A stretch of DNA of 64,000 nt, from the NCBI GenBank assembly GCA_951406725.2, contig OX597817.1, forward strand, positions 34,906,001 through 34,970,000, written 5' to 3'. Origin of the DNA: Octopus vulgaris (lineage: Eukaryota). How positions within the stretch are numbered: position 1 is the first letter of the stretch; every line of letters starts with the position of its first letter. Below, piece by piece: positions 15,173 through 64,000 of the stretch. Position numbers and translations under genes: made by a program. The notes beneath the pieces were generated by a model. The model was not told where the DNA came from. It did not search any database and saw only the letters and a list, made by a program, of their open reading frames with translations.

Positions 15173-15573
15173 TCAGAGTTGTGATAATACTTTATTAACA
15201 AAACTGAACATGGGATGACTCGCACAAGTTTTCATCCAAACTTCAACATTTGGTGAAACAAGTTTAGCAAGCTTGTTTTTCTGGATACCAGACCAAGAAA
15301 CAATATCAGCTAAAGACAAGTCATGACCAACCAACCACTTTCTCTTTGACAGTGTTGAGTCTAGATCTTTTATCATTTCATTTTTTTGTTCAGCATTACC
15401 ATTATAAAGTAATAAACTGGCTTTATCTACCCAAGCATCTATCAGCGTTGACTGAACAGGATCTTTATCATATGAGGGGTTTATCAACCTAGAAAAATAT
15501 CGAGCAACATTCACTTCTCCATAGATAAAGGTTTGTTTCTCAGGATTGACCATCAGCGAACATCCTTGACGAA
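15173..15573 (-). CDS. AIMP2: AIMP2 coding exon 4 (GST-C-like domain) to stop
   Basis: IYGEVNVARYFSRL...TLIDAWVDKA...LDSTLSKRKWLVGHDLSLADIVSWS is a GST-C-like AIMP2 signature. Acceptor ttttactttcAG completes the phase-1 codon G|TT; TGA at 15175-15173. Confidence 0.92.
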
Positions 15574-17031: not shown

Positions 17032-17275
17032 CATTTTTGTAAATAATTGTGAGCAGCAGATCGTTTGACAGCCGACTGTCTTCCGGTTTCTTCAAAGGTG
17101 AGGCAAAGTCAAATAAATTACGTAATTTTGGTGAAGGTTTCTTCTCAACAGAAGAATGAACATATATAGTAGGCTTCACTTTCAAACTTCGTGAGAGTTC
17201 TTGATATAGAATAAGTACAGACAACGGGACTGAATTCGGGTCAACACCAATCACTAAATCTTGAAATTTAACATT
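17032..17275 (-). CDS. AIMP2: AIMP2 coding exon 3 (thioredoxin-like / GST-N domain)
   Basis: NVKFQDLVIGVDPNSVPLSVLILYQEL...YVHSSV...LTIIYKN matches the AIMP2 pattern DIVINANPxxPPLSLLVL...HTHSSV...TLIWKN. Acceptor ttttattctacAG, donor AATG|GTAAAA; phase 0/1. Confidence 0.9.
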
Positions 17276-18959: not shown

Positions 18960-19103
18960 ATCTAGAACAGGGCCCAATGTCTGACTGCTCTCCTGGCATT
19001 CACTTCCACATGACATTTTATCTAATTCATCTTGTATTCTTTTGAGTCGAGCAAAGATAGCAGCTTGTTGCCTCTCAAGATCAGAAATTGGGTTATTTAG
19101 TGT
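18960..19103 (-). CDS. AIMP2: AIMP2 coding exon 2 (coiled coil / leucine zipper)
   Basis: TLNNPISDLERQQAAIFARLKRIQDELDKM resembles the AIMP2 zipper (LExRQxxILxRL). Pyrimidine tract + AAG acceptor, GAT|GTAAGT donor; 144 nt, phase 0/0. Confidence 0.85.
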
Positions 19104-26399: not shown

Positions 26400-26720
26400 T
26401 TAGGTAATCATTAATCACTTTTTAAAATATCCACTAAATATTTCTATATTGTTGTAACAAACCAATAACCAAAGAGAATTTCAAGGATATGAATAAAAAA
26501 CTGTTTAACAAAAGCAGCATGGTGTACAGGCTCTCTTCCTTGTGATTCTCATATAATATATGACCCACTTAAAAATAAAGGTGCATGCACTTCAATCAGT
26601 TATACAAACCAGATAGTAACAACAGCCACTATTATAGTTACTAGTAATAAAATGTATGTCAATTAAATTAAAGAGAATTATTTTGCTGTTATTGTTATTT
26701 GAGAATACCTGTACTTTTAC

Positions 26721-27275
26721 CTGAATATTTTCATCAACATTTTTTAATAAATCCACATGACTCGTTGCATCTTGGCTGACATGAGTGAAGGATGGGTTAG
26801 ATTTGGAAGTAGATACTTCTGATGAAATACTACGGGACTTTTGATTTACACAAGTGCTGTCTGAATGAGGAATATCTTCTATAGAATGAAGTAGTTTTGT
26901 AGGAGAGTTTTGTGGTTTAATTTCACAGGTATATTTATCCATATCTGATGAAGAAGGTTTCATCTCAGTTACATTCTCCACAGACATAGCTGTATTTTCT
27001 TTCTGTTGATTACGGGATGAAACTAAAACATAGTCCTCAACTAAAGCTGTCTCAATATTCCCATTGTTTTCACAAGCATCAATATTTTCCATTCTATCTT
27101 GATTAGCTACAAAAGATTTGGTAACAGCAGTTGAAGAATTTTTAATAGTTGTTGGTTGTTCTAAAGGAGTTTTATCAGAGCACATGTCAGATTTTCGTGA
27201 TTTTTTCTTCTTAGCTCCACATGCAATAACTCGGTGAAGAAACTGCTCTGCAGCTTTAGAAGCAGTATTTCCCAT
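26721..27275 (-). CDS. Putative alternative first coding exon of AIMP2 (N-myristoylation-type leader)
   Basis: 185 open codons in AT-rich intron 1; acaATGG Kozak with an in-frame TAG upstream. Two phase-0 donors (CAG|GTAAAA at 26721, CAG|GTATTC at 26709) are compatible with exon 2. Begins MGNTAS...C..KKKKSRK. Confidence 0.6.
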
Positions 27276-28517
27276 TGTAGCAGTCAGCAGCTAACTAACA
27301 CTGACAACAGAAAAATAACTGACTTTCAAAGACTGAAAGAGAAGAGTTGAGGTGTGTAACCAAAATAGACTTACACAACAGTGAGTCAGCAATGCAGAAC
27401 TTTATAAAGGCATCACTTGGGTTGATTCAATCTATTCATTCTTATGAAACCAGTTCTAGCTATACTAATTTTTCAGTATAGTTCGTACCATTTTGGAGGG
27501 AATATTTGAGATAAAGTGAAGAGGTTTAATAGTTTGAATGAATCTCTACTTTTCCAAAATATGAAGGAAACAATAATTTAGAACCAACTCTTGTTAAGTA
27601 TTTGAACAAGGAAAACTTTCTATAAATTTAAAGATACACACATATACACTTTTTTTTTAAAAGTCAAACCTGAAGATTTCATAATTCAAACTGTCAACCT
27701 GTCAGTAAAATAAATACATTATTAAATTGTGTATGAGTTTGTGTATGTGGAGGTGAGTTTGTATGCATGTGTGAGTTTGTAAGTGTGTGTTTGTGTGTGC
27801 ATGATTTTGTGTGAGTGTGTGTGTGAGTTTGTGTGTGTGTGTGTGTACATGCACGTGAGTGAGTGAGAGAGGTAAAAACATGAAACACACTTGGCGGTTA
27901 CAAATTCAAGCCTTACTACAACATATGTGACCTCTTTCTACTTATTTTATTGCTACTCTCTATCTAATTCTAGTATATCACCTACCAGCACACAATAGAC
28001 TTGTTTCTCCTTCCCACTTTATCTTTATTGGGTTTCGCTGCCTCCACAATAATTATTCTGCCCAATCCTTCTTCTTCACAAGGCCATCCTACTGGAATTT
28101 CCTCTCTGCCCAAATTTTTTCATGTAAATTTTAACCTACATTAAAACTAAATATCCACCATACTGATCTCACGAGTCCAGAGACCCTGGCAATATCATAT
28201 AAATTGCTAAGATAGTGAGCTGGCAGAAACTTTAGCACACCAGGCAAAAACGCTTTGCAGTTCATTTGCCTTTATGTTCTGAGTTCAAATTCCACCATGG
28301 TCAACTTTATCTTTCATCCTTTGAGGTTGATAAAATAAATACCAGTTGACTGCTGGAGTCAGTGTAATCGAAATACCCACTTCTACAAAGTTGCTGGCTT
28401 GGTGCCAAAATTTGAAACCAAAATATCATGTTAGTTTCTCTGAAAAATTTACATAATTATGGTCACTTTGTCTTGGTATCACATTATATTTGAGACTGCA
28501 TTGTACTCAAGTAAATA

Positions 28518-37700: not shown

Positions 37701-39168
37701 ATCATAGAACAGTACTTGCAGTCTGCCATCTCCCACTTAACCATTATGAGATAAATAAACAAGTTAATTCTTTGATTTCCTGTAAGGAAAAAGACAGTCC
37801 CTTAAGGGGGTCGTGATGAAAGTAAAGATACTGAGTGAATTATTTATTCGATTCTTTTCACGTAACATGAAATTACTTTCAGAAATCCGTTTAAAAAATC
37901 CAACACCTCCAGTGCACCCTGATTCAATAACTAATTTTAATACAAAAATAAATATTGATGCTCGAAGACACAAAATCGCATCCAAAGCTCTTCGTTTCAT
38001 TCTCGGCTCTCATCTCTTCTCATATGTATCGATTACACTCACTCACCTCGAAACCTCTCACTCCACCCAAGTTTTTCCATCCAGAACATCGTCCCTTACA
38101 ATTCTACTTCCTGCACGTCTTCCCTGCAACTGCCGGCTTGCAACAGTTGAAGCAGAATATTAACGATATCAATGCCACCAGTAGACTGGGCCTACAAAGG
38201 CCATGACAATTATTCCTGTTTTCACTAAGCGAATAAAAATTAATTCACTCTGATACTGATTGCCATGGGCTTGTGGAAAGTAGTGCAAATTGATTTTGAA
38301 GCGCCATTTCTTAGGATACTAGCCATAATAGTAGCAGTGGTTACAAAGTGAAATTGAATTTAAAATTATAACCAAGACGTCAGAAACATAACAGAACTAA
38401 CTTTAGTGTAGACTGTAAACTACATTGAGGCTAAATAGCATTATTTGGTAGTAATTTTCATGGATCATGAGTCTAAGTGTGGTTCTGCTTGAATGATTAA
38501 CTAGAACATAATTTCATGATTTCTACAAGTGATATCAAATAAAATGACGAATAAATTTTGTTTTAAATAAATTTTTAGAACATAAATTTATATATATATA
38601 TATAATATATACTAAATATATAGGCAGAGAGGAAGTGAGTGTTGATTTTTATGCTAGAACATGAAAATACTAGTAGGATGATGAAATATGTTAGACATGT
38701 ACACTAACATCTTGTTTGCTTCGCTGCATGTTTTGCTAAATAGCTTCGGCCAGAAGTTTTTCATAATCAATGCATCCTTGGATCATATTCACAAGAAATG
38801 GGATAAACCAAATGTAAAATAGTTTTTAACAAGACGGCTGACGTAACAATTAATGAAAGTGAATTCCTTTACAAACAAACATGTCACAACAAAATGTCTG
38901 TTGGTTGAGATTAAGAACAGTTTCTTTCGAAAATGTTTAAAGTACTGCGTTGTTTGTAATTTCAGAAACAAATTTAGGTGATCTTACGACCAAATTTATT
39001 CTTGTATTATATGTAAAAGTTAAAGTTGAATCAAATCTGTTTAAAAACACAGCATCTCGAGCTTCGAGTATTGACGACGAGTCACAGAAAATAGAAAAGT
39101 GACACGTGCTAATAAATACTGAAACCAAAAGTATCATCTAAAATGAACATCAATTGAAATTTACTCAC

Positions 39169-39321
39169 ATCGGCTTTTTCATGAGCTTTGGTAATTCGTT
39201 TAACATAATACATATCTTCAGACGTCTTCAGATTCATATTATTAAAAGAGTGGTATGGTTTTACATGGTACATTTCGCCGCTATCGGCTACAGACGGAAA
39301 CGACGGCTCCGAAGAAGACAT
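39169..39321 (-). CDS. AIMP2: AIMP2 (p38/JTV-1, multi-synthetase complex scaffold) coding exon 1
   Basis: Encodes MSSSEPSF...MYHVKPYHSFNNMNLKTSEDMYYVKRI..., matching the AIMP2 N-terminal motif M-Y-x-V-K-P-Y-H...M-Y. ATG at 39321 in agcATG context; alternative start at 39273. Phase-0 donor GAT|GTGAGT at 39169/39168. Confidence 0.85.
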
Positions 39322-41273
39322 GCTGCCGATTTGACACCTCAACAACACTTTAGTGAAGCTGTCAGCCTGAAACTGCGCAGGAATCAAATAATCGCTCTTA
39401 TTCCGTCACCGAAAACCTGGTCCGGTGCCAACTTTTAGAAGCAACCATAAGTACACTATGAATAATAAACTCAACAAACTAGAATCGATTATGTCCCTTC
39501 AAATATTTCGAATTTGTTTTTTTTTCTTCATAAATACACTTTAATGAATACTTTTTAAGTTTTCTTAGATATTTTCAATTAGTTTTTTAATATACTTCAT
39601 TCCAAGGAACATTATAAGATTTTATTGAATAGGATATAATAAAAAATATTTTTTTAAAAAACATGTAATTACAACAATAAATATCATTCTTGAGCATGTT
39701 TCTGAATTTCTAACATGTAGATGAAAAATAATCATACAATATTTTAATTTAAAAAAATTTTAATGTCCACCAATGATGCAATAATAATGCATCACAAACA
39801 AAGACACTAGTGTTCGATAATTATCTCCCTTGTGTTGCATGGCTTTTTCAAAATAAAATGTAAGAAAACCTAAATAATGGGCAGATAATCCAATACCTTT
39901 TATTGAATTACTTTTTATAATTTTTCTTTTATATTTTACACAAACAATATAATAAATATTTTTTATATAAAAAATATTATTACTTCACTTATTTTAATAA
40001 ACTTACTATTTTTGTTCATAAAATTATGAATTTAGGAAATAATTATGCATTATTTTCACTTTGACAATTATACGAACATAAATGCAAAATGTCTGTTTGT
40101 ATACAAGTACGAAATGTAATATATATAAACGAGTATTATATATCGATAAAAATCTTTATAACTAATTTACAATTCTCTATCAAAAAAGATAATAAATTTG
40201 GGGGGGTTTTTTTTGTTCAAAACTGAACTGAATCTCTCATTCGTGTATAAAATCATTAGCAATATGGCTATTACAAAACAATAATATTGAACAAAACAAT
40301 GTCATGATCTTACATTGATATCGTTGCATAATAAATTATAATCAATATATTTTTTAAATACTTTTCTTGATTGATAAGCATAATTTATAATGCTTTTACG
40401 CTATATTTAATCGAATAATTTGGCAAGTCCCGAAACTGAAATTAGCTTAACAAAGCCAAGTGATGTAAAACGTTGCATCCTGTTAATAAATCGAATTTTG
40501 TAATTACCGAGCTAGTTTTGAAGAATTACTGATATTATTTTGACCAGTTATTTAGAGTTATCGCTCTTATTCCAGGAAATCTATTTATAGATTTATGTTT
40601 ACATAGAATATTAATAATTCAAGTTATATTTCTTTAGGAGGAAATATCAGTCGACGAAATCACCCTGTAAACTTCTCGGATAAAAAAATATATAACATAG
40701 CAAAAACATTAACAACAGGGGTGGGGATTAAAGTTTTATTTCTGAAAATTAAAGAGATGACCATTAACAATGTATTAATAATTTTCCTATAAATGATAAC
40801 ACTTCATATTGGGCTAATGGATAGTGAAACCTTTTTACTTCAGGTAGTGATCTTCAAAACAACCACTCCACTTCCTAGAAAAACTTTTTAATTCCCACGA
40901 AATCTCCCTCAAATTAAAACCTGCAGCCTTTAAAACAGGAGTTCACAATGCATAATGTAATCATATGGAATTGATACTGTATGGCTATGGTCAGAATTCC
41001 TTTGGTCATAGATCAGATCTATCATAGATCAGATCTATCTTATTGTTAAACAACAATAACAACAACCTCAGTTTACTCAGCTGGAGAAAAATTACCGGGC
41101 TTTCTATTAAGTAATAGGTAAACATTCTAACTGGGGCATAGATATATCTCATGTATGTAAGGAAGTAGGAAGCATGCCACACACGATATCCTATGACAAG
41201 GATATTACTACGACTGTTCTTTCACTTTCCCTCCATCTCACTCACTCTCTCACTTCCTCTCTTTTTGTCACTC

Positions 41274-49199: not shown

Positions 49200-51123
49200 C
49201 ATCATCATCATCGCTTAACATCCGCTTTCCATGTTAACATGGGTTTGACGATTTGACTGAGGACTGGCAAGCCAGATGGCTGCACCAGGCTCCAATCTGA
49301 TCTAGCAGAGCTTCTACAGCTGGATACCCTTCCTAACGTGAACCACTCTGAGAGTGTAGTGGGTGCTTTTATGTGCCACCAGCACAAGGGCCAGTCAGGC
49401 TGTACTGGCAACAGCCATGCTCAAATGGTATTTTTTACGTGCCACCTGCACAGGAGCCAGTCAAGCAGCAATGGCAATGACCTCCTCGAATACTTTTTCA
49501 TGTGCTACCAGCATTTTTACATGCCACTGGCATAGAAGCCAGTCAGCTGCTCTGGCAACAATCATGCTCAGATGGTACTCTTAGCGCTCCAATGGCATGG
49601 GTGCCAGTCATTGAATTTGATTCGATTTCGATTTGCCTCAACAGGTCTTCGCAAGCAGAGTTTAGTGTCCAATGAAGGAAAGATATGCATAAGTGGGCTG
49701 ATTACATCCCTGGCATAAGCCACAGGTTATGGTCTCACTTGGCTTGCTGGATCTTCTCACGCACTGCATATTACCAAAGGTCTTGGTCACTAGTCATTGC
49801 CTCAGTGAGGCCTAATGTTTGAAGGTCGTGCTTCACCACCTCATTCCAGGTCTTCCTGGGTCTACCTCTTCCACAGGTTCCCTCAACTGCTAGGATGTGG
49901 AACTTTTTCACACAGCTATCCTCATCCATTCTTGCCACATGACCATACCAGTGCAGTCGTCTCTCTTGCACACCACATCTGATGCTTCTTAGGTCCAACT
50001 TTTCTCTCAAGGTACCTACACTCTGTTGAGTATGCACACTGACATTACACATCCAGCAGAGCATACTGGCTTCATTCCTTGCGAGGTTATGCATGTCCTC
50101 AGTAGTCACTGCCCATGTTTCACTGCCATGTAGCATGTCTGTTCGTATGCATGCGTCATACAGTCTACCTTTTACTCTGAGAGAGAGGCCCTTTGTCACC
50201 AGCAGAAGTAAGAGCTCTCTGAACTTTGCCCAAGCTATTCTTATTCTTGCAGCTACACTTTCAACACAGACTCCCATGCTACTGACTTGGTTACCTAGGT
50301 AATGGAAGCTATCAACTACTTCTAGCTTTTCTTCCTGGAATGTGGCAGAAGTTGTTCTCTGCACATTTTCAGTGTTTATTGCTCCTGACCATCTGCCACA
50401 TACAAAAACTATCTTCCTAGTTAGCCTTCCTTTGATATTGATGCACCCCTTATGTGTCCATAGCTTACACTGGGTACATCTTATAGAGTTTCTACCTATG
50501 CCTTTTCTATAGATTGAGCAGGGCCATCTACCTGAAGGGATTTGTAGTTTGCCTGCCTTCCTACTTATTAGGACTTTGGTTTTAGCTAGGTTGACTCTAA
50601 GGCTCTTTGATTCTAATCCTTGCTTCTACACCTGAAACTTCTCTAGTTCTGATAGTGACTCAGCAATTAGAGCAAGGTCGTCAGCATAGAGGAGCTACCA
50701 GAGGCATCCTGTCTTGAATTCCCCCGTTATTGCCTGGAGGTCTATGATAAATAGGAGGGGGCTGAGTACTGAACCTTGGTGGATCCCTACTTCTACCTAG
50801 AATTCTTCATTGTATTCATTGCCAACCCTCACCTTACTGACAATATCCCTGTACATGGCTTGCACAGGTTTTACTAACCATTCATATATCCCAAGTTTCC
50901 TCATCGACCACCAGATAAGGGATTGGGGGACCCTGTCAAAGGTTTTCTCCGTGTCAACGAAAGCCAGGTACAGGGGCTTATCTTTGGCTAGGTATTTCTC
51001 CTGCAGCTGTCTTACCAGAAATATAGCATCAGTGGTGCTTTTCTCTGGCACAGACCCAAACTGCATCTTATCTAAACTGACACTCTCCCTAATTAGTTGG
51101 ACTATGACCCTCTCCGTGACCTT
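49200..51123 (-). mobile_element. RTE-clade LINE, 5'-truncated (RT, C-terminus, 3' UTR)
   Basis: QFG..PEKSTTDAIFLVRQLQEK..LAFVD.EK.FDRVP, YADD near 50678-50689, FHYLG, HGSETWA, GRGRPRKTW; (TGA)n tail; stops and frameshifts. Confidence 0.9.
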
Positions 51124-52500
51124 CATTTTATCTTTTTATATTTTATCTGTTTCAGTCATTAGACTGTGGCCAAGCTGGGGCACCATCTTGAATTTTTAGT
51201 TGAATGAATCAACCCCAATGCTTATTTTATTTTTAAAGCCTGGTACTTATTCTATTGATCTCTTTTGCCTAACTGCTATGTTACAGGGAATGTAAACACA
51301 TCAACAGTTGCCAAGCAATGCTGGTGGTGGGGGGACAAATACAGACACAAACACACACACATTTATGTACAATAGGCTTGTTTTTGCCTACCAAATCCAC
51401 TCACAAGGCCTTGGTCAGTCTGAAATAGCAAACATTTGCCCAAGGTACCACTCAGTGGGTTCTGAACCTGGAACCATATGGATGAAAATCAAGCTCCTAA
51501 CCACACAGCTATGCCTGTGTCTTCGGAAATTTTATATACTAGGTACTTAAAGATCATAGCCAACATGGTAAATGCAATTTGTAATAGGGAGTTCAAAATT
51601 GCAGTGACATTTGGAGAGAATTTAACAAATATATATGAAGGTAGTTGGTAAACACTAAATAGTGTATACTCAGTGGTGAGAAAAGGCCTACAAAAAGTTT
51701 TTGTGAGATCTTTGAGAGGCTGACAGATGTACCTTTGTAATAAGTTGTGGAAGCATACATGAAGTAATGTTTATAGATTCCTTAGCTTGATAGTTACTGA
51801 TACTTAGGTGCTGGAGACAGCTGCAGGGATAGTTTGGCAGCTGGAGTAAAGAAATCAAAAGGTAAAACGGGGAAGAAGTCTGGGTGGTTTTTACCATTGT
51901 TGATATCAAATGAAACTGTAAGCTAACAAGCTTGTTGTGTAGAAGAATGCATAAAATCTGAAATCTGGAGTATCAACTGAGTGAATAATGAGTTTTGAAT
52001 GTGTGTGTGTGTGTGTGTAAATTGTATGCGTGTTTATGTGATTTGCATGCCAAAAATGTGTGTGTATGTGTGTCTCTGTGTCTGTGTTTGTCTCCCACTA
52101 CTGCTTGACAACCAGTGTTGGTATGCTTACATCCCCATAACTTAGCAGTTTGACAAAAGAGACCAATATAATAATTACCAGGTTTAAAAAAATAATAAGT
52201 CCTGGGGGTTGATTCATTCGACTAAAAGATTCTTCAAGGTGGTGCCCCAGCATGGGCACAGTCTAATGAGTGAAACAAATAATATATACACATATGTATA
52301 TACTTTATTTAAAAGCAGCAGAAATATAACAAAATGGAACAGCTGTTCCATTTTAACAAAACTGTCCGACAAATGGGAATGTGAAACTCTGAGTAACAGC
52401 TTTTGTTATAGTTCTGCTACTTTTCAATAAAGCATATTACTCTACCTTTTATATTTAAGTACTCTTTTTTCCACCTTGTTTCACATTTATGTGCTTACTC

Positions 52501-53904: not shown

Positions 53905-56900
53905 TCATTGCTTAACATCCATTTTCCATGCTGGCATAGGTTGGATGGTTTGACATGAAGTTGGTCAGCTGAGGAGCTGTCCAGATTCTAATTGTCTCTT
54001 GTGGCATGGTTTCTATGACTAGATGCCCTTCCTAATGCAAACCACTTTATTAAAGTGTGTGATGGGTGCCTGTGGGTGCTTTTTATGTGTCACTGACATG
54101 GTGACACAAGTGCATTCTATGTGGCACCAGCACCTGCAAAAGTCACGCCTGTATGTATGGATGATAACAATCTTACTTAGCTTGACACATCTTCTCAAGT
54201 ACAGCAAATCTCCACGACACATTGTCGTTTCCTCAATGAGGCTCTGCATCCGAAGACCCTTTCTTACCACTTCATCTCACATCTTTTTGGGTTCCCTCCA
54301 CAGTTAGAGCTTGTCACTTCATTATGCAGCTGTACTCATCCGTACACATCACATGGCCAAATCAGTACAGTTTACTTTCTTGCACACAACATCTGATGCC
54401 TCTTATACTCAGTTTTCCTCTTAAATCATTTATGCTCTGTTGTGTGTGCACACAGATGTTACCCATCCAGCAGATTATGCCAGCTTCATTTCTCTTAACC
54501 ATTCACAAGTCCTCTGTAATCAAAGCCCATGTTTCACTGCCATGTAGCATAGCTTTTCACTCTGAAGGAGAAGCCCTTAGTTACCGACAAAGGTAGAAGC
54601 TATCTGGACTTTGCCCAGCCCATTCTTACTCTAACAATTAAACTTTCTCCTCCACTGCTAACTTGATCTCCTAGGTAACAGAAGCTATCTACTACTTCTA
54701 ATGATTCCCCCTGAGCATTTGGGGGAGTCTATTATCTGCACATTTTTGGTGCTTATTGTGCCTGCACATTTGCCACACACAAAGACTATTTTCTCTGTTA
54801 ACCTTCCTGTGATACTGCTATTCCTCTTATGTGTCCAAAGCTTGCACTGGGTACAATGTATGGAGTTTCTATCAGCACACTTCTTATGTATTGAGCAGAG
54901 CCATATCCCTGAAGGGACTTGTGATTTGTCTGTTTTCCTACTTATTACAACTTTGGTGTTTGCTAAATTAACTCTAAGGTCTTTAGATTCCAGCCCTTGC
55001 TTCCACGCCTGAAATTTCTTCTCTCGGTCAGGTAGTGACTCAGTTATAAGAAAAAGGCCATCAGTGTAGAGGAGCTCCAAGGAGCAGCTGGTCTTGAATT
55101 CCTCTGTTAAGGCCTGGAGGACTAACATAAACAAGAGGTGGGTGAGAACTGAACTTTGGTGAACTCCTATCTGTACACTGAATTCATTTGTATACTCATT
55201 GCCAACCTTCACCTTACTGGCAACATCCCTGTACATGGCTTGTACAACTCTAACTATTCACTCATCTATCCCTAGCATCCACATTGACCACCAGATAAGG
55301 GAATGAGGGACTCTGTCAAAGGCTTTCTCCATGTCAACAAAAGCCAAGTAGAGAGGTTATTTTTGGCTAAATACTTCTCCTACAGTTGCCTAACCGGGAA
55401 TACAGCATCAATCATGCTCTTACTTAGCACAAATCCAAACTGCATCTCATCTATGCTCTCTTCCAGCAATCTGATGCCTCTGTAATTATTTTTGTCTAAG
55501 GCATCACCTTTGCCTTTATAACAGCTGATTATAATGCTGCCACAGCAATTATTGGGTATGGCTCCTTCGTGGATAGTCTGATTAACTATATGGGTGATTA
55601 AGCTATATCCTAATCTACCAGATATTCTAAGCATCTCATGGTGATTCCTGATGGGCCAGGGACTTTCCCTGTCTTCATATCCTTAATTGCTTTATCTAGC
55701 AAGCTACTATCGATTTGGATAGCTGGTCCCTCAATTGGATCTACATTTGGCAGGCTCTCTTTCTCCCATGCATTCTCAACATTTAGCAGCCTTTCATAAT
55801 GGTATTTCCAAGTCTCTTTCTTTGCAGAATCACTAAATACATTTCTCTCCTATGAAATCATGATTTTCTCTCACACAGTGTCTTGCAAGCTGAAACACTT
55901 CAAGTCTGGTCCTATCACTGCAGAACATTGGCAAACTTCTTTTTCTGTTTCTACATGGGCTAAATATGCCTGTCCCCTAGCCTACCTTCTGGCTGTCTGA
56001 TACAGTTCCCTGCTACCACCACACTTCTAGTTCTCTCAGGCCTGTTTTTTTTCTCTAATAGCCTTCAACTACACTATTCTATCACCATGTCACCTAAGGT
56101 CAAGAAGGGACTTTGTACTAGCCACAAATTTGATTACTGGCCCTCAACAGGTTGTTCTGTAGAAACTTCCAGTTGTCCTCCATGTTATATGCCACTATAT
56201 CCCCCATTTTTTCCTCAAATGCTTCAGTTAACACGTCTCTAAATCTCTTGCCATTCAGAGGATCCTTAAGCTTCCAAACCTTTCTTTTTCACACTGGTTG
56301 TCTTTCTGGTAGCTTTTTAGCCTTGCTTCTGAAATCTCTAATGACTAACCTATTTTTAGGGGTGCATTCTTCACCTGGGAAATTTTTGGCATTTATTAGC
56401 AATCATCTTCCCTGTTTTCTGGCAAGAATGTAATAAATATGGCTAGTGTGCCTACCAGATTGATGGGTGAACAGGTGACTGGCAGGTTTCCTGAAGTTGG
56501 TTTATTTTACTTGTTTTAGTCATTTGACTGCGGCCATGCTGGAGCACCGCCTTTAGTCGAATCAAATCGACCCTAAGACTTATTCTTTGTAAGCCTAGTA
56601 CTTATTCTATCGGTTTCTTTTGCCGAACCACTAAGTTACAGGGACATAAACACACCAGCATCGGTTGTCAAGTAATGTTGGGGGGACAAACACAGATACA
56701 CAACATATACACACACACATATATATATATACATATATACGACGGGCTTCTTTCAGTTTCCGTCTACCAAATCCACTCACAAGGCTTTGGTCAGCCCGAG
56801 GCTATAGTAGAAGACACTTGCCCAAGGTGTCACGCAGTGGGACTGAATCCGGAACCATGTGGTTGGTAAGCAAGCTACTTACCACACAGCCGCTCCTGTG

Positions 56901-63449: not shown

Positions 63450-64000
63450 ATGTCTACGAAATCGAGGCGTGCGAGAGGTCGTCCGCCAAAAACCCCATTG
63501 TCGGGTCGGACCAATTTTCTGAAAAGACCTAAAGCTTTCTATCATGGTACGTTTGGAGATAGCCACCACTTTGACGGTGGAATACAAAGTTCCACAGGAG
63601 CATATGCTGGTAGTAGCTCTCATTTAACACCTCATAGTCACCATCATCACACGGGTAGGGCTGGCTCTACGGCCAGCGGCATTAGTATGAGCAGTAGTAG
63701 GGGTGCCCGTCTAAGGGAGGCCGCTCAGAAAAGCCGTAGCTACATCTTACAAATGCTCGAAGACGACGATGATGAACATAAACATTCAGAGGTAGAACCT
63801 GACAAATCTAGTGACTTAACAGATATGGATAATGTCGATGAAGACCGTTGTTCGGATGATACCTATGAAGAGTCTGAATCTATACACAGCGAAGAGAGTT
63901 ATAGTACGGTGGGTTCTGTGAGCAAAAGAAGATACCATTCACGGCGGCCCAAAACTCCGGATTTAGACGAAACCCGTGAAATTCCTCCTTTGAACCTGCC
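63450..64000 (+). CDS. BPTF: BPTF / NURF301 nucleosome-remodelling factor subunit, first coding exon (truncated by window end)
   Basis: Open frame MSTKSRRARGRPPKTP (AT-hook, as in Drosophila NURF301 RGRPPKTP)...NFLKRPK..., an acidic tract, then RPKTPDLDETREIPPLNLP, matching the pre-DDT segment of BPTF (RPRSP..EEKDIPPLEFP). No stop before 64000. Confidence 0.88.
   Translation, partial: MSTKSRRARGRPPKTPLSGRTNFLKRPKAFYHGTFGDSHHFDGGIQSSTGAYAGSSSHLTPHSHHHHTGRAGSTASGISMSSSRGARLREAAQKSRSYILQMLEDDDDEHKHSEVEPDKSSDLTDMDNVDEDRCSDDTYEESESIHSEESYSTVGSVSKRRYHSRRPKTPDLDETREIPPLNL

Follow-up and report, generated by a model that had tools for sequence, protein, structure and literature searches.

The AIMP2 gene of Octopus vulgaris carries, within its first intron, an alternative first coding exon that almost certainly yields a real, translated long isoform, in which the amino-terminal peptide of exon 1 gives way to a predicted acylated tip and a long spacer. 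We consider it probable that this tip, with predicted myristoylation and palmitoylation, tethers the AIMP2 product of this single gene, and likely a LysRS-poor part of the synthetase complex, to a membrane. The window (the whole 64,000-nucleotide stretch analysed, contig OX597817.1) contains a single AIMP2 gene, encoded on the minus strand (Table 1), with a canonical product of 313 residues whose exon 1 and core are identical to P0001, labelled Octopus vulgaris. Both domains expected of AIMP2, thioredoxin-like and GST C-terminal, are present on Pfam scanning (PF18569, E 2e-23; GST_C above cut-off), and human AIMP2 GST chains match at E 1e-28. A coiled-coil helix with a conserved LE-x-x-Q block precedes the GST-like domain in the long form.

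Table 1. Features of the AIMP2 locus, in window coordinates (slash, exon–intron boundary)
Feature	Position	Strand	Remarks
Canonical AIMP2 exon 1, coding part	39321-39169	-	51 codons, phase-0 donor; equals P0001 residues 1-51
Exon 1 MY-x-V-K repeats	residues 17 and 37	-	from motif list; presumed LysRS-docking peptide
AG acceptor and pyrimidine tract, candidate	27333-27350	-	36 nt without other AG
Putative 57-nt untranslated leader	27276-27332	-	applies if the 27332 acceptor is used; without ATG
In-frame TAG upstream of intronic ATG	27293-27291	-	six codons before ATG
Minor AGs in putative leader	27324, 27320, 27302, 27296, 27292	-	
Conserved tip, codons 1-30	27186-27275	-	Gly2, Asn3, Ser6, Lys7, amphipathic 3-19, Cys19 (27221-27219), basic patch 22-28
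Linker, codons 31-185	26721-27185	-	155 residues, polar acidic, net charge -9, no structure predicted
Donor in use, CAG/GTAAAA, phase 0	26715-26720	-	from database protein junctions
Second in-frame donor, CAG/GTATTC	26703-26708	-	used by 0 of 45 proteins
Read-through stop codon	26592-26594	-	227 codons if intron retained
Exon 2	18960-19103	-	48 codons; coiled-coil helix common to both isoforms; modelled helix 190-216
Exon 3	17032-17275	-	thioredoxin-like half of GST-like domain; PF18569 E 6e-24
Exon 4	15173-15573	-	GST C-terminal half and stop; single genome match

CpG is depleted over 12000–60000, a span that includes the gene and its flanks, and rises locally at 38000–41000 around exon 1, the pattern expected of a methylated gene body with an open promoter. 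Elsewhere in the window, fragmented reverse-transcriptase-like frames on the minus strand (49771–51135 and 54685–55682) are, we assume, probably LINE remnants, and an open frame in CpG-rich DNA on the plus strand (63450–64000), which runs off the window edge and has an acidic stretch besides a basic RGRP-type start, is presumably the start of a transposase-type gene.

A preliminary description of this DNA had proposed a long open reading frame on the gene strand within AIMP2 intron 1, and the exon positions (exon 1 at 39321–39169, exon 2 from 19103) place it there. Its strong Kozak context (acaATGG, ATG at 27275), the in-frame TAG six codons upstream (27293–27291) and donors that fit the phase-0 acceptor of exon 2 are confirmed as well. 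Left unspliced, the frame spans 227 codons; no other gene-strand frame in this 20,065-nt intron exceeds 102. Markov simulations of an intron of the same length (n = 300) gave a longest ATG frame of 97 codons at the median and 218 at most; one simulated intron reached 185 codons and none reached 227. The ORF DNA is single copy in the octopus genome, as are the 388 nt upstream, and protein searches with 189- and 35-residue queries returned no second intact copy of the exon. A transposon or repeat ORF, the objection anticipated in the preliminary description, is rejected: the frame is single copy as DNA and as protein, Pfam detects no mobile-element domain in it and no match comes near the cut-off (COMMD8_HN and BORCS7, far below it, were both discarded).

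The predicted isoform of about 447 residues matches a database protein exactly. CAI9720823.1 (P0004, Octopus vulgaris, 447 residues) has window 27275–26721 as its residues 1–185 and exon 2 as residues 186–233, and its carboxy-terminal 262 residues are identical to those of the canonical form; XP_029635515.1 (P0006, O. sinensis RefSeq, 446 residues) matches the exon at 180 of 184 positions and the core at 261 of 262. Both are annotation gene models, in a seven-member octopus cluster. Logan contigs, an independent line of support, supply P0010 (475 residues, 11 contigs, the longest 2,125 nt) and P0015 (472 residues, one contig) in an 11-member cuttlefish cluster, and the last 256 residues of these two are shared exactly with the short forms P0011 (nine contigs) and P0003. 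A further decapod-like cluster, of four members, pairs P0025 (451 residues, four contigs) with the short form P0020 over 260 shared residues. A frame that continues over the junction on contigs this short (at most 2.1 kb) would therefore come from spliced RNA. P0017 tracks P0015 for 216 residues and then departs at the junction, marking an intron there as would a read-through product. Gln is the last residue of every cephalopod exon, matching the CAG/GT donor at 26721. Of the tandem phase-0 donors put forward earlier, both GTs are in place (after 26721, giving 185 codons, and after 26709, giving 189), but only the former is in use among 45 proteins, and the latter is dropped as unsupported. 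Isoform pairs with identical carboxy termini and different amino termini recur in octopus, in two decapod clusters and in three mussel assemblies; in these pairs the alternative exon joins exon 2 in frame and is mutually exclusive with exon 1.

A search of 1.84 billion representatives with phmmer gave two matches, of which P0023 is a true relative and P0024 was rejected as a low-complexity repeat protein. In the octopod-like relative represented by the P0023 cluster the frame is open for 211 codons, with 153 of 184 identities despite four indels, and all five members (Logan, 180–211 residues) read into the intron. Querying longer proteins with the exon gave none among 605 candidates, a count that misleads because the long isoforms sit as non-representative cluster members. 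The O. bimaculoides and Argonauta records in the cluster are of the short form only. The O. sinensis (P0006) and Aplysia (P0022) proteins bear RefSeq names without an isoform suffix, each the sole form of its species in its cluster, and the long form may be the main annotated one in both. A metagenome scan found, among 135 candidates, two loci with an AIMP2-like last exon and no usable amino terminus; in both (L004, 746–1288; L005, 406–948) that exon lies tail-to-tail with a gene that we take, from its peptide, to be MAD2-like, in a compact animal genome. The preliminary description knew of no such isoform. It was in fact already in public annotation, where it sits unremarked, and none of the papers listed by full-text searches of the open literature describes it.

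Splicing exon 1 to 27332 would end the frame at codon 65, with the stop 15 nt ahead of the new ATG, so the long isoform requires either a separate start site or a leader without coding sequence. Five acceptor positions were tried after exon 1; four lead to an early stop and only 27292–27291 keeps the frame. The acceptor described as strong at 27332 does have its pyrimidine tract and AG, although splicing into it is only predicted. Candidate consensus-like donors between 27333 and exon 1 lie at 38046, 37193 and 33621. The first of these (minus strand) has a full GAG/GTGAGT consensus, 1.1 kb below exon 1, in nearly unique DNA (37800–38320, with two weak 71–75% matches elsewhere in the genome), and this region is a candidate leader exon, though with upstream ATGs.

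The tip is the part of the exon that has lasted. Aplysia californica AIMP2 (P0022, RefSeq, 517 residues, three accessions as one cluster member) starts Met-Gly-Asn and has a Cys at 19, and among the first 40 positions only Met1, Gly2, Asn3 and Cys19 are fixed in all four lineages (octopus, cuttlefish, P0025 and Aplysia). Compared with shuffles, residues 4–25 are alike between octopus and cuttlefish (p 1e-5), between octopus and P0025 (4e-5) and between Aplysia and the three cephalopods (3e-4, or 3e-3 without Cys19). The linkers, 155–210 residues long across lineages, have diverged beyond recognition: those of octopus, decapods and Aplysia align no better than shuffles in five of six pairs (p 0.34–0.98), the alignable pair being the two decapod-type proteins. 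At the level of sequence, conservation is thus shown to be restricted to the first ~25 residues, the proposed anchor.

Mussels offer a more ambiguous case. Three of the 15 listed cluster members (17 in total) have an alternative first exon; in these RefSeq isoforms (XP_076073561.1, XP_071130161.1 and XP_063444520.1, from three assemblies) a 29-residue first exon is exchanged, at the same junction, for a 27-residue peptide that starts MGNTL and has Cys8. The first five residues are those of cuttlefish, and beyond residue 5 the mussel peptides show no likeness to the others (12 tests, p 0.14–1.0). They have Asp6, a net charge of −3 over residues 2–35 and no amphipathic signal (p 0.34–0.55), and the mussel exon may be unrelated or work differently. 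P0036, a further mussel RefSeq isoform, shows yet another start at this junction, the third and unrelated to the others, which implies that such 5′ ends can be annotation noise. Our reading is that this alternative first exon arose once, before cephalopods, gastropods and bivalves split over 500 million years ago, with convergence in mussels as the alternative. The six clusters retrieved held no non-mollusc AIMP2. AIMP2 ends seem to have been remodelled in other lineages too: an arthropod Atlas cluster named ‘AIMP2 isoform X1’ (672 residues) has a tRNA_edit domain (PF04073) in 98% of 64 members, and an arthropod PheRS cluster (714 residues) has the AIMP2 thioredoxin-like domain in 96% of 85.

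The long form lacks the peptide that exon 1 encodes. The amino-terminal N36 of human AIMP2 is the LysRS-interacting region and lowers the Km of LysRS for tRNA two-fold (10.1101/2024.12.07.627298), and a cross-link joins AIMP2 Tyr35 to LysRS (PMC7470956). Two MY-led repeats ~20 residues apart are present in all eight mollusc short forms examined, where they overlap weak matches to PF16780 (‘AIMP2 LysRS binding’; four of six short forms, best E 7e-4, and none of four long proteins). Every mollusc match to this family lies below the curated cut-off, including that of the window’s exon 1 (E 0.054), and querying the PDB with exon 1 brought up no AIMP2 peptide. From the repeats, PF16780 and background knowledge of the family, exon 1 is presumed to be a two-motif LysRS-docking peptide. 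Scanned with a profile built from the repeats, five of five cephalopod long forms give no match (p 0.25–0.48). The suggestion that the LysRS-binding peptide is swapped out therefore stands for cephalopods, and for mussels, whose exchanged peptide is LysRS-binding-like. In Aplysia it may not apply, because P0022 residues 194–201 hold a weak copy of the LysRS-type motif (score 12.7 against 17–30 for true copies; p 0.005, one of six tests) and its one-member cluster holds no short form. Some LysRS contact may persist in Aplysia, where one protein may combine the two functions.

What the long form would gain is a lipid anchor. In all 13 MGN-start proteins Gly immediately follows the initiator Met. 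N-myristoylation is favoured by Asn3 and Lys7, and in octopus Gly2, Asn3, Ser6 and Lys7 fit such a modification. Ser or Thr is preferred at position 6 (PMC5170614), and the MGxxxS consensus noted earlier holds in octopods and Aplysia (Ser6) but not in decapods (Gly6) or mussels (Asp6). On its own, myristate gives weak binding, and a further signal, for instance palmitate, is required (PMC3668125). Candidates for that signal, as sequence features, are Cys19 in all four lineages, the basic patch in cephalopods and Cys8 in mussels. The polybasic patch of the preliminary description is likewise a cephalopod feature: the net charge of residues 20–30 is +4 to +6 in six of six cephalopod sequences and −1 in Aplysia, and the mussel peptides have no net basic patch. 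Residues 3–19 have a helical hydrophobic moment of 0.36–0.62 (shuffle p 0.005–0.046 in six of seven sequences, 0.12 in P0025), and Cys19 closes this amphipathic stretch. An AlphaFold2 model of the long form (19-sequence alignment, mean pLDDT 50) has a folded core with pLDDT 60–86, a helix at 2–19 with pLDDT about 33, residues 20–189 without structure and a helix at 190–216; the low amino-terminal confidence fits disorder, and the model lends weak support to a tip helix. The tip is unmatched in the PDB (first 60 residues, no matches), in Pfam and in the Atlas (residues 1–40, no usable match). Taken together, we are fairly confident that the long form is lipid-anchored.

A mechanism can be drawn from these features, of which we infer every step after splicing. 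The intronic exon would be used in place of exon 1; Met would be removed and Gly2 myristoylated; residues 3–19 would lie along the bilayer as an amphipathic helix, with Cys19 S-acylated and Lys/Arg 22–28 binding acidic lipid; and the 155-residue linker would act as a flexible spacer. In human AIMP2, AIMP1 and the GST core attach through the coiled coil and GST-like domain (PMC7470956 and PMC9136112), and GST dimerization is stated in PMC9136112. The intact coiled coil and GST-like domain of the long form could still recruit AIMP1 and GST-core synthetases, and LysRS would be left without a docking site unless short-form AIMP2 shares the dimer. On balance we lean towards the long form carrying complex members to the membrane.

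A lipid-anchored isoform might instead act outside the synthetase complex, either as an adaptor at the membrane, for signalling or the ubiquitin pathway, or by drawing partners away from the cytosolic complex as a sink. Free human AIMP2 has non-translational roles and is a parkin substrate (PMC5676866), and loss of the LysRS site could destabilize assembly; yet the binding regions for AIMP1 and the GST core, the coiled coil and GST-like domain, are fully kept, and in Plasmodium a membrane AIMP can still assemble complexes, making this reading unlikely. We judge it distinctly improbable that the tip is unacylated, serving as a basic amphipathic targeting peptide (a mitochondrial presequence or nuclear localization signal) or as a protein-binding helix. 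Its amphipathic character, net charge of +3 to +7 over residues 2–30 and Lys/Arg run in cephalopods would suit such a role, as would Gly6 and Asp6, which fall outside the preferred consensus; but a fixed amino-terminal Gly2-Asn3 in three mollusc classes and a Cys at exactly 19 in four lineages would then go unexplained, and the basic run is missing in Aplysia and mussels.

Two further readings concern the transcript. Were the exon internal, after exon 1, it would be either a poison exon (through 27332, terminating at codon 65) or a spacer that keeps the frame (through 27292–27291), and Gly2 would never be a free amino terminus. The strong acceptor ahead of the ATG, the outcome of the five acceptors tried (four early stops, one in frame) and the lack of an identified upstream alternative first exon speak for this arrangement. 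It is nonetheless very unlikely: all ten long or read-through cephalopod and Aplysia tip proteins start Met-Gly-Asn, none of 45 proteins has exon 1 followed by this exon, and conservation begins exactly at Met. We regard it as hardly credible that the ORF serves chiefly as a short gene in its own right, or as an intron-retained product with its own stop. The five P0023-cluster Logan members (180–211 residues) and P0017 do enter the intron, and AATAAA hexamers lie ~300 nt past the stop, though these are common in such AT-rich DNA; against this, the cuttlefish cluster has 12 spliced contigs to one read-through, the donor position is conserved and the lengths of the read-through tails (42, 8 and 7 residues) bear no relation to one another.

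The preferred reading, an acylated AIMP2 from an alternative first exon, has partial parallels. Metazoan AIMP2/p38 is the same gene with the same core (PF18569 and GST_C); it has a PF16780 amino terminus, whereas the octopus long form replaces the LysRS-binding-type exon with a 185-residue exon that has a predicted acylation tip. A known human variant, AIMP2-DX2, skips exon 2. In Plasmodium, tRip is a membrane AIMP that anchors two synthetase complexes, and PMC9136112 states that such a localization had not been reported for any other AIMP. The likeness is a GST-like scaffold at a membrane, where tRip assembles synthetases and the octopus counterpart is predicted only. tRip is an Arc1p-type protein, integral to the membrane, with a tRNA-binding domain and one form; the octopus protein would have a lipid on an optional exon beside a cytosolic form, and its long form has no EMAPII-like tRNA-binding domain by Pfam scan, and is not a tRip-type membrane AIMP. 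c-Abl 1a/1b is one gene with two amino-terminal splice variants, one of them myristoylated (PMC5676866); it is an unrelated protein, and the octopus switch also drops a partner-docking peptide and adds a 155-residue spacer. By analogy, the isoform would share its gene logic with c-Abl 1b and its outcome with tRip, without belonging to either. Dually acylated amino termini of Src-family kinases and plant CDPKs share Gly2 and a Cys and/or basic second signal, but their Cys stands at 3–6, and that of octopus at 19, behind an amphipathic stretch.

It is unsettled why synthetases are assembled into one complex in animals and whether that complex is positioned in the cell. Plasmodium tRip is the sole membrane-bound scaffold that we found described. 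A natural, long-conserved isoform pair differing only in a LysRS dock versus a predicted lipid anchor offers a handle on where the complex goes and which enzymes go along. With N36 lowering the Km of LysRS for tRNA, the switch could alter local lysine charging. Aplysia, squid and octopus are standard models of neuronal local translation. Tentatively, and with less than even confidence, we propose that since the ancestor of cephalopods, gastropods and bivalves a first-exon switch may have supplied an acylated AIMP2 and, around it, a multi-synthetase complex tethered to membranes and free of LysRS, close to membrane-local translation, for example in large neurons, freeing LysRS for signalling; this would be the first scaffold of a synthetase complex to be lipid-anchored in an animal.
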